Below are positions 54,355 to 54,969 of a stretch of 64,000 bases of DNA, one piece after another. The DNA is from Escherichia coli (GTDB lineage: Bacteria > Pseudomonadota > Gammaproteobacteria > Enterobacterales > Enterobacteriaceae). A model generated the notes under the pieces. That model had not been told where the DNA came from and did not search any database. It was given only the letters and a program-made list of their open reading frames with translations. Every line of letters begins with the position of its first letter. Position 1 is the stretch's first letter. Position numbers and translations under genes: made by a program. The DNA lies in the NCBI RefSeq assembly GCF_013122565.1, contig NZ_CP053258.1; one strand, 5' to 3'.

Positions 54355-54969
54355 TTTTCGATCCTTTCATTGTGTTGTCGCACATCCCTGGTGCGTTCTG
54401 TCGACGCATCTTTCAGGATGTAACAAAGTGTTTGCAAGGTCGAGTATAAGGAAAGTTACAGCTTCGGGAAGCGAAAAATGCTGGATTTTAAAGAGAGGTC
54501 ATGTTTTGCAACTTAATGGTTACATTTGTTTGACATAAACAGAGGGAAGGACTGGCTACTAAGGCTGATTAGATAACATATGGGCAAAACTATTTGGAAT
54601 ATGAGAACGGTTGCGCTCCTTTAATGTGTTATGCCATATAAAGTCACTGGCGCAGGGAGCGCGCAGGGGGCGGCCAATCGCCGCCGCCCCCTGCCCCCCC
54701 AGGCTCTGGCGAACAAAATCGCCGCTGCGCGGTTCCCTCAGCTTATCCCTTGCGGCTACCGGGTCGGGCGCAAGGTAACGTCCCTGTAAGATGCGCCCTC
54801 GCCGCGCATCCATGCGCGTCGCCCCGGCCTCCAGGGAACGCTTCGGCGATTTTGACGCCACCAACACCCGTGCGGTCTTTTTGTAAAGAGCTATAAGCCG
54901 ATTACATAATTAATAGCTCACCTTTGTCTGGAATGAGTTATCTCTAGTAATGGCTTAATATACAGCGAA

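Follow-up and report, generated by a model that had tools for sequence, protein, structure and literature searches.

The GC-rich palindromic element between alx and sstT of Escherichia coli GCF_013122565.1 is very probably TRIP1d, the alx-sstT copy of the TRIP1 repeat, which at this position would act as a weak trigger of replication gaps at most. The element is real and already known, as a named repeat published at exactly this locus. The name of the repeat dates from 1999, its copy at this exact locus was catalogued in 2024, and experimental work on its paralogues goes back to 2023. What remains new is the evidence from covariation for the fold of the repeat and its possible tie to the TwoAYGGAY motif.

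The TRIP1d repeat in the alx-sstT spacer

The window, which is the whole stretch of 64,000 nt of contig NZ_CP053258.1 that was analysed, contains the element in the 615-bp spacer between alx and sstT, and both flanking genes are on the minus strand. The features of the locus are:

53110-54354, minus strand: sstT, with its start at 54354
54541-54965, no strand: segment of about 425 bp in which the alx-sstT spacer is polymorphic, from pairwise alignment with MG1655
54559-54867, minus strand: arginine-rich 102-aa open reading frame, not a gene, with the frame broken in copies other than TRIP1d
54610-54873, minus strand (the G-rich strand, 'sense' of Pham et al.): TRIP1d repeat, 264 bp, from paralogue alignment
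54874-54900, minus strand: weakly conserved flank with the pattern GCnCTTTAnnnAnAnAC, common to several E. coli copies, from alignment columns
54970-55935, minus strand: alx, with its stop side at 54970

The earlier note had described a GC-rich palindromic element between the two genes. Both palindromes are present where it had placed them, and the GC content in 100-nt windows is 0.63-0.74 over 54600-54899 against 0.36-0.40 on both sides. The alignment of paralogues makes the true unit, 54610-54873, somewhat larger than the 54640-54870 given there. The border at 54610 is fixed at GTTGCGCTCC by multiple alignment, and the other edge lies near 54873-54880. Judging from the alignment columns, the flank at 54874-54900 may be a part of the ancestral TRIP1 unit.

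TRIP1 repeats were described in a survey of intergenic repeats (Rudd 1999, Res Microbiol 150:653), and we traced the family name via papers citing that survey. The available sections of Li et al. (2024, Genes 15:236, PMC10888264) place TRIP1d downstream of alx, at 96 bp from its stop, and upstream of sstT, at 255 bp from its start. The element in the window shows the same two distances. We identify it as TRIP1d because its position and length reproduce those published for TRIP1d exactly; the locus, the gene distances, the length of 264 bp, the GC content, the fold, and the fraction of carriers all agree. The same sections give a GC content of 62-65% and a very stable branched 'double-Y' predicted fold for TRIP1, and report 89% homology of TRIP1d to TRIP1a over about 264 bp. 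They list five loci, TRIP1a between aqpZ and ybjE/lysO, TRIP1b between putP and ycdN/efeU with an internal 125 bp missing, TRIP1c near yohI/dusC, TRIP1d, and TRIP1e between copA and ybaP, at which 99% of E. coli TRIP1 copies sit (PMC10888264). Inversions and other rearrangements have occurred between TRIP1 copies, and two of them involve TRIP1d (PMC10888264). In the parts available, Pham, Cox, Goodman and colleagues state that RRS are TRIP1 (Pham et al., NAR 2023, PMC10287960; NAR 2024, PMC11194060), RRS-lysO being TRIP1a and RRS-dusC being TRIP1c.

The paralogues in MG1655 confirm the assignment to the family. The element is 87.6% identical to the aqpZ-lysO copy over 267 nt and 87.5% identical to the yohP-dusC copy over 287 nt; with the putP-efeU copy included the identities span 87-91%, and the paralogues differ by 9-13%. 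The 222-bp near-identical block of the two K-12 RRS copies, which are located at lysO and dusC (0.915 and 2.229 Mb), aligns to approximately 54647-54868. The putP copy of MG1655 has lost 125-128 bp internally, matching the deletion published for TRIP1b.

A megablast search with the spacer covered 5426 complete E. coli genomes and matched 5425 of them, in two to six places each, so that the element is multi-copy and not the single-copy sequence that would have spoken against a repeat. The whole spacer, that is the alx-sstT allele with TRIP1d, is present in 1659 of the 5426 genomes; for comparison, Li et al. (2024, PMC10888264, in the sections available) counted TRIP1d carriers as 1565 of 6725 genomes. 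In genomes lacking the whole spacer, the part matching 54610-54893 is found elsewhere, at yohP-dusC, putP-efeU, and aqpZ-lysO. The spacer of E. coli B is 98.9% identical to that of the window. MG1655 has no TRIP1 between alx and sstT, where 54541-54965 is swapped for approximately 212 bp of unrelated sequence, and this K-12 spacer allele occurs in 2581 of the 5426 genomes as against 1659 with the TRIP1d allele. The site is thus polymorphic, and at least two unrelated alleles of the alx-sstT spacer exist, each with a repeat of its own, since the MG1655 spacer (3547-3758 of the extracted stretch) also holds a GC-rich palindromic repeat, which occurs in a median of 14 places per genome and which we take to be BoxC-like.

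The comparison between genera draws on 34 distinct copies, taken from E. coli, E. albertii, another Escherichia species, Pseudocitrobacter, an Enterobacteriaceae genome, and Klebsiella. An exact-pattern scan of species genomes returned 40 stretches, about 15 of which are chance matches in unrelated high-GC taxa; the scan overlooked K. aerogenes even though its copy fits the pattern, and therefore it is no census of the distribution, and the absence of Salmonella, Citrobacter, and Enterobacter from it carries no meaning. Klebsiella copies are more numerous, and one K. pneumoniae chromosome, which is recorded as a plasmid (CP125156.1), contains at least 13 such places. The Klebsiella copies are mostly bracketed by REP-like palindromes and have a longer conserved tail past GGGAGCGCAA, in two variants. 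Short contigs recorded as Bacillus sp., Sporobacter termitidis, Desulfacinum, and a 'Proteobacteria' MAG also carry TRIP1 copies; these are 90-97% identical to E. coli or Klebsiella TRIP1 and probably represent contamination or mis-binning. One short contig (L046) resembles a chimera of TRIP1 types. In the 4.83-Mb record NZ_CP026085.1, labelled DH5alpha, the TRIP1 at putP-efeU is full-length and efeU is intact, whereas K-12 MG1655 combines the deleted TRIP1b with an efeU pseudogene; the strain label of the record is doubtful. A phage origin of the element was dropped, as there was no match to it among 50,697 phage records.

Other structured or repetitive features of the window lie outside the spacer. 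The RNase P RNA gene rnpB occupies 18755-19131 on the plus strand (318.6 bits), and three tandem 113-nt repeats (19044-19383, plus strand) overlap its 3' end. REP/BIME clusters are located at 33897-34170, 36640-36728, 37850-37938, and 62635-62861. The stretch 62700-82 matches Rfam naRNA4 (70.4 bits), and 37831-73 matches ES036 (39 bits). The leader of alx in E. coli is assigned to the yybP-ykoY manganese riboswitch family; no Rfam match to it was found in the alx leader of the window (55936-56300, minus strand; 401-nt slice, E up to 10).

Conserved fold of the repeat and rival classifications

The multi-branched structure of each strand is kept by compensatory mutation. As single-stranded DNA, the 264-nt element folds with -80.2 kcal/mol on the minus strand and -74.2 kcal/mol on the plus strand, compared with dinucleotide-shuffle means of -59.3 and -53.1 kcal/mol (z = -5.9 and -5.8, respectively), and none of the 200 shuffles folded as well as the element. 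The minimum free energy of the minus strand as RNA is -135.6 kcal/mol. The fold comprises the following features, which overlap in part:

54613-54662, minus strand: terminal helix (helix 12), GCGCUCC(C/U) paired with (G/A)GGAGCGC
54663-54694, no strand: 12-bp GC hairpin with an 8-nt loop (helix 11), the first palindrome
54681-54700, minus strand: G4 motif GGGGGGGCAGGGGGCGGCGG, seen in the sequence, overlapping one arm of the GC hairpin
54716-54855, minus strand: TwoAYGGAY-like core (RF01731; helices 2-10), a long closing stem and a junction with two adjacent hairpins
54766-54798, minus strand: hairpin 2 (helices 8-9), loop AGGGAC (GTCCCT at 54780-54785 on the plus strand)
54803-54818, minus strand: hairpin 1 (helix 7, with three covarying pairs), loop AUGGAU, containing the second palindrome

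In the minus-strand consensus over the 34 copies, 99.1% of the cells are standard pairs. Seventeen of the 74 pairs changed on both sides across the Escherichia, Pseudocitrobacter, and Klebsiella copies, a count that was reached by 0 of 500 shuffles, and slid controls gave three at most. The first palindrome consists of CAGGGGGCGGC, the loop CAATCGCC, and GCCGCCCCCTG at 54664-54693, and its stem extends to the pairing of 54663-54674 with 54683-54694. Four of the twelve pairs of this GC hairpin covary, for example from GGCGGC/GCCGCC to GGAGGA/TCCTCC in two copies (L006 and L042). The second palindrome, GCGCATCCATGCGC, is at 54804-54817, within helix 7, which reads CGCGC/GCGCG here as opposed to CCCAC/GUGGG or CCCGC/GCGGG in other copies. 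The loop of hairpin 2 follows A-N-GGA-Y across the copies, and is AUGGAY in an Enterobacteriaceae genome (L037) and a Klebsiella copy (L053). The terminal helix has eight pairs, one of which covaries (CG in 18 copies, UA in 9), and it sequesters AAGGAG, which resembles a Shine-Dalgarno sequence and lies at the minus-strand 3' end. The idea of a small open reading frame following this AAGGAG was discarded, as the frames behind the ATG that some copies have there are unconserved and 3-9 codons long, and AGGAGCGC is paired in a conserved helix. The covariation argues that the hairpin fold, and not the G-tract alone, is under selection, rather than or as well as a G-quadruplex, because the C-rich partner of the G-tract is also preserved. 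This covariation across genera is a result beyond the available sections of the TRIP1/RRS papers.

The two strands are not equivalent in their consensus. RNAalifold gives -109.3 kcal/mol for the minus strand against -94.1 kcal/mol for the other strand, a difference of 15 kcal/mol. G-U-type intermediates occur at 13 pairs and in 40 cells on the G-rich strand as against 7 pairs and 13 cells on the other; this comparison of G-U with A-C intermediates favours the G-rich strand modestly and treats RNA and single-stranded DNA alike. The asymmetry suggests that it is the fold of the G-rich strand that matters, and would fit the 'sense' single-stranded DNA of RRS but equally an RNA.

Similarity in general appearance had led the earlier note to consider a boxC-type repeat, and the element is indeed GC-rich, palindromic, and intergenic like BoxC and REP/BIME repeats. 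BoxC, REP/BIME, and ERIC elements share with TRIP1 the intergenic position, the GC-rich or palindromic composition, the variability between strains, and the independence of orientation, but they have no sequence relationship to it, and TRIP1 is much longer and has a far lower copy number in E. coli. The element occupies two to six places per genome where dozens would be expected, and every place examined is at a TRIP1 locus. As the earlier note had remarked, it does not resemble the REP families of the window, and neither does it resemble the multi-copy repeat of the K-12 spacer allele. Therefore, the BoxC guess gave way to membership of TRIP1/RRS with its five fixed loci in E. coli, and an identity as BoxC, REP, or ERIC, rejected on copy number, loci, and lack of similarity, has next to no probability left. 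We give equally little credence to a real small basic protein encoded by the 102-aa frame, which the earlier note had rightly taken for a likely GC artefact. In TRIP1d-type copies the frame is uninterrupted, and some RefSeq genomes list it as a hypothetical protein, but in every other copy it is broken by a stop at about codon 23, by further stops, or by frameshifts, the putP copy of MG1655 lacks 125-128 bp, and the substitutions between copies are base-pair compensations and not codon-wise. Coding was thus rejected on the broken frame in the paralogues, and the 'hypothetical protein' of 102 residues over TRIP1d should not count as a gene.

That the element is selfish or was once mobile, a non-autonomous repeat of a MITE-like or REP-associated kind whose fold is kept for its own propagation and which has no host role here, is improbable but has more in its favour. 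The presence and absence of TRIP1 are polymorphic at alx-sstT and copA-ybaP, the copy number ranges from two to six places in E. coli to at least 13 in one K. pneumoniae chromosome, REP-like palindromes surround the Klebsiella copies, and the orientation to genes is arbitrary. Nevertheless, the ends of the repeat show no visible terminal inverted repeats, neither a target-site duplication nor a clean empty site was found, and no transposase is associated with the copies. In the 'empty' K-12 allele the repeat is replaced by unrelated sequence rather than cleanly excised. The concentration of 99% of E. coli copies at the same five loci (PMC10888264, in the sections available) and the distance of 9-13% between paralogues, which implies that the spread is old, also speak against it, as does the conditional lethality of losing both RRS copies reported in the parts of the RRS papers available.

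Orientation of TRIP1d relative to replication

The activities described for the RRS paralogues depend on the strand that carries the G4 motif. According to the available parts of Pham et al. (PMC10287960, PMC11194060), the RRS strand with GGGGGTGCAGGGGGCGGCGG is a block to Pol I, II, and IV in vitro, and it cuts the rolling-circle output of Pol III by half. [quoted passage not shown] RRS relocated in the same orientation act alike; inverted RRS produce no RecA/SSB peak in vivo, yet complement the loss of the natural copies, and the loss of both copies is conditionally lethal (PMC10287960, PMC11194060). In the part available of a single-molecule study, an inverted RRS still yields lagging-strand gaps, although less often (Kusi-Appauh et al., bioRxiv 2026). 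The motif of TRIP1d, GGGGGGGCAGGGGGCGGCGG, differs from the published RRS G4 by one T-to-G change that makes the G run longer, and a pattern search, which predicts G4 at the level of sequence, found the motif or a near variant in 31 of the 34 copies.

The plus strand of the window corresponds to the minus strand of K-12, as alx, sstT, and rnpB all have the opposite orientation in MG1655. In MG1655, alx is at 3.2386 Mb, and the locus is thus at about 3.24 Mb in the left replichore, approximately 1.65 Mb from dif by K-12 coordinates. A fork moving towards lower K-12 coordinates would, by synteny with K-12, move towards higher window coordinates. The same strand logic applied to lysO and dusC returns the published lagging template for both. 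The net positive, modest GC skew of the window plus strand agrees with the assignment to the leading template, and the orientations deduced here match the 'forward' and 'reverse' labels in the available sections of Li et al. (PMC10888264). Based on the K-12 synteny and the modest GC skew, we infer that the G4 strand of TRIP1d is the leading-strand template, which is the weak orientation of RRS.

TRIP1d thus shares with RRS-lysO and RRS-dusC an identity of 87-88%, the fold, and the G4 motif with one substitution, and differs from them in that its G4 strand is on the inferred leading-strand and not the lagging-strand template. By synteny with K-12, the placement of the G4 strand on the lagging template was not found at TRIP1d, and neither was the position about 650 kb from dif flanking Ter: both RRS-lysO and RRS-dusC lie at that distance, and TRIP1d is at about 3.24 Mb on the K-12 map. 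Unlike these two copies, TRIP1d is carried by only about 30% of strains.

In the RRS copies, the G4 strand stalls DNA polymerases when it is the lagging template, and a gap is left behind the fork. TRIP1d, its G4 strand being the leading template, would be a weak gap trigger at most. A strong programmed-gap role of TRIP1d is unlikely because of the weak orientation, the large distance from dif, and the lack of TRIP1d in approximately 70% of strains. Since those 70% of E. coli genomes live without TRIP1d, any function that it has is dispensable. What has been documented for it is a part as a dispensable, strain-variable paralogue that can be used as a substrate when TRIP1 copies recombine. The G4 strand would also be the non-template strand for transcription from alx to sstT. 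We speculate that TRIP1d may form a structural barrier between alx and sstT, because the G-rich strand would be the non-template strand for read-through transcription.

Likeness to the TwoAYGGAY motif

The earlier note had also considered a structured RNA, and an Rfam scan gives a likeness of this kind, albeit below the threshold. Between 53000 and 57000 the scan finds one match alone, to TwoAYGGAY (RF01731), which reaches 31.1 bits on the minus strand (E = 0.0057); the gathering cut-off of this family is 43. The K-12 yohP-dusC copy scores 30.9 bits and a Pseudocitrobacter copy 29.6 bits with the same model. In the alignment to RF01731, the closing stem, the hairpin CAUGGAUG, and then the hairpin ACAGGGACGU are placed as in the family, and the P1 stem is present and covaries in the TRIP1 core. 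Common to TwoAYGGAY and TRIP1 are the closing stem around two adjacent hairpins and the loops A-N-GGA-Y. In the element here, the loop AUGGAU of hairpin 1 fits the AYGGAY pattern. The two differ in that TRIP1 scores 30-31 bits against the cut-off of 43, has AGGGAC and not AYGGAY in the second loop here, and carries an extra module of GC hairpin and G4 as well as the terminal helix. The AGGGAC loop is also present in a Psychromonas member of the original TwoAYGGAY alignment, and TwoAYGGAY is multi-copy in some genomes, with several loci in Psychromonas ingrahamii, for example (Weinberg et al. 2010, PMC2864571).

A diverged second element lies head-to-head with the TRIP1 copy in two Pseudocitrobacter species and an Enterobacteriaceae genome:

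L026:2193-2325, plus strand: second element, Pseudocitrobacter faecalis
L040:5645-5777, plus strand: second element
L037:1550-1682, minus strand: second element, Enterobacteriaceae genome

The element of P. faecalis scores 49.2 bits with RF01731, above the cut-off of 43, and that of the Enterobacteriaceae genome scores 37.8 bits. We built a covariance model from TRIP1 cores only (R1), which gives 155 bits on 54716-54848 and matches all three second elements over their full length with E = 2.5e-9 to 4e-12, values that are rough owing to a short calibration. The second element of P. faecalis is followed by a G-rich hairpin, GCGAAGGGGGGCGCGGTTGCCCCCCTTTGC. Homology between TRIP1 and TwoAYGGAY through this transitive link by way of the neighbouring element is plausible from sequence comparison. 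We put at even the chances that TRIP1/RRS is the enterobacterial branch of TwoAYGGAY, a class whose more than 200 sequences stem from gut metagenomes, Clostridia, and Psychromonas. None of the TwoAYGGAY literature consulted concerns RRS or TRIP1, and the available sections of the TRIP1/RRS papers make no mention of TwoAYGGAY. Relative to Li et al. 2024, in the sections available, the covariation across genera, the strand relative to replication, and the likeness to TwoAYGGAY are additions.

TwoAYGGAY is filed as an RNA, whereas the evidence for TRIP1/RRS is at the DNA level only. That TRIP1d, and TRIP1/RRS in general, is a structured RNA of the TwoAYGGAY kind made from the minus strand, in the 3' untranslated region of alx or the 5' leader of sstT, appears unlikely, though less so than a selfish repeat. 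The minus strand is the sense strand of alx and sstT here, the consensus fold and the G-U intermediates favour it, and TwoAYGGAY is the sole Rfam match on it, as likewise in two other copies. The architecture is the same, with the closing stem, the hairpin CAUGGAUG, and the hairpin ACAGGGAYGU, and R1 matches in full length a neighbouring element that passes the RF01731 cut-off (49.2 against 43). TwoAYGGAY was proposed as a binder of CsrA (PMC4333381). Against these points, the Rfam score of TRIP1d is below the cut-off, and covariation is the same for RNA and for single-stranded DNA. At two of the four loci the G-rich strand is antisense to both neighbours (aqpZ-lysO and putP-efeU), and it is co-directional with them at dusC and alx-sstT. 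A scan for promoter and terminator consensus sequences was negative within and at the element; the promoter-like site closest to it, 54881-54910 on the plus strand, points away from it. The DNA-level activity of the paralogues was shown with purified polymerases and replisomes, according to the available parts of the RRS papers. One possible role of such an RNA may be the binding of CsrA through the GGA in the hairpin loops, which would be compatible with a DNA-level role. The loop UACAGGGAUGU of K-12 TRIP1 matches the CsrA SELEX consensus.

The likeness to TwoAYGGAY is a testable bridge from an orphan 'RNA' motif to a DNA replication element. If the relationship is true, TwoAYGGAY sequences elsewhere would be DNA-level elements of replication gaps or topology like RRS, the 'functional analogs' that the RRS authors anticipated; or else RRS/TRIP1 would also act through RNA, for example by the titration of CsrA.
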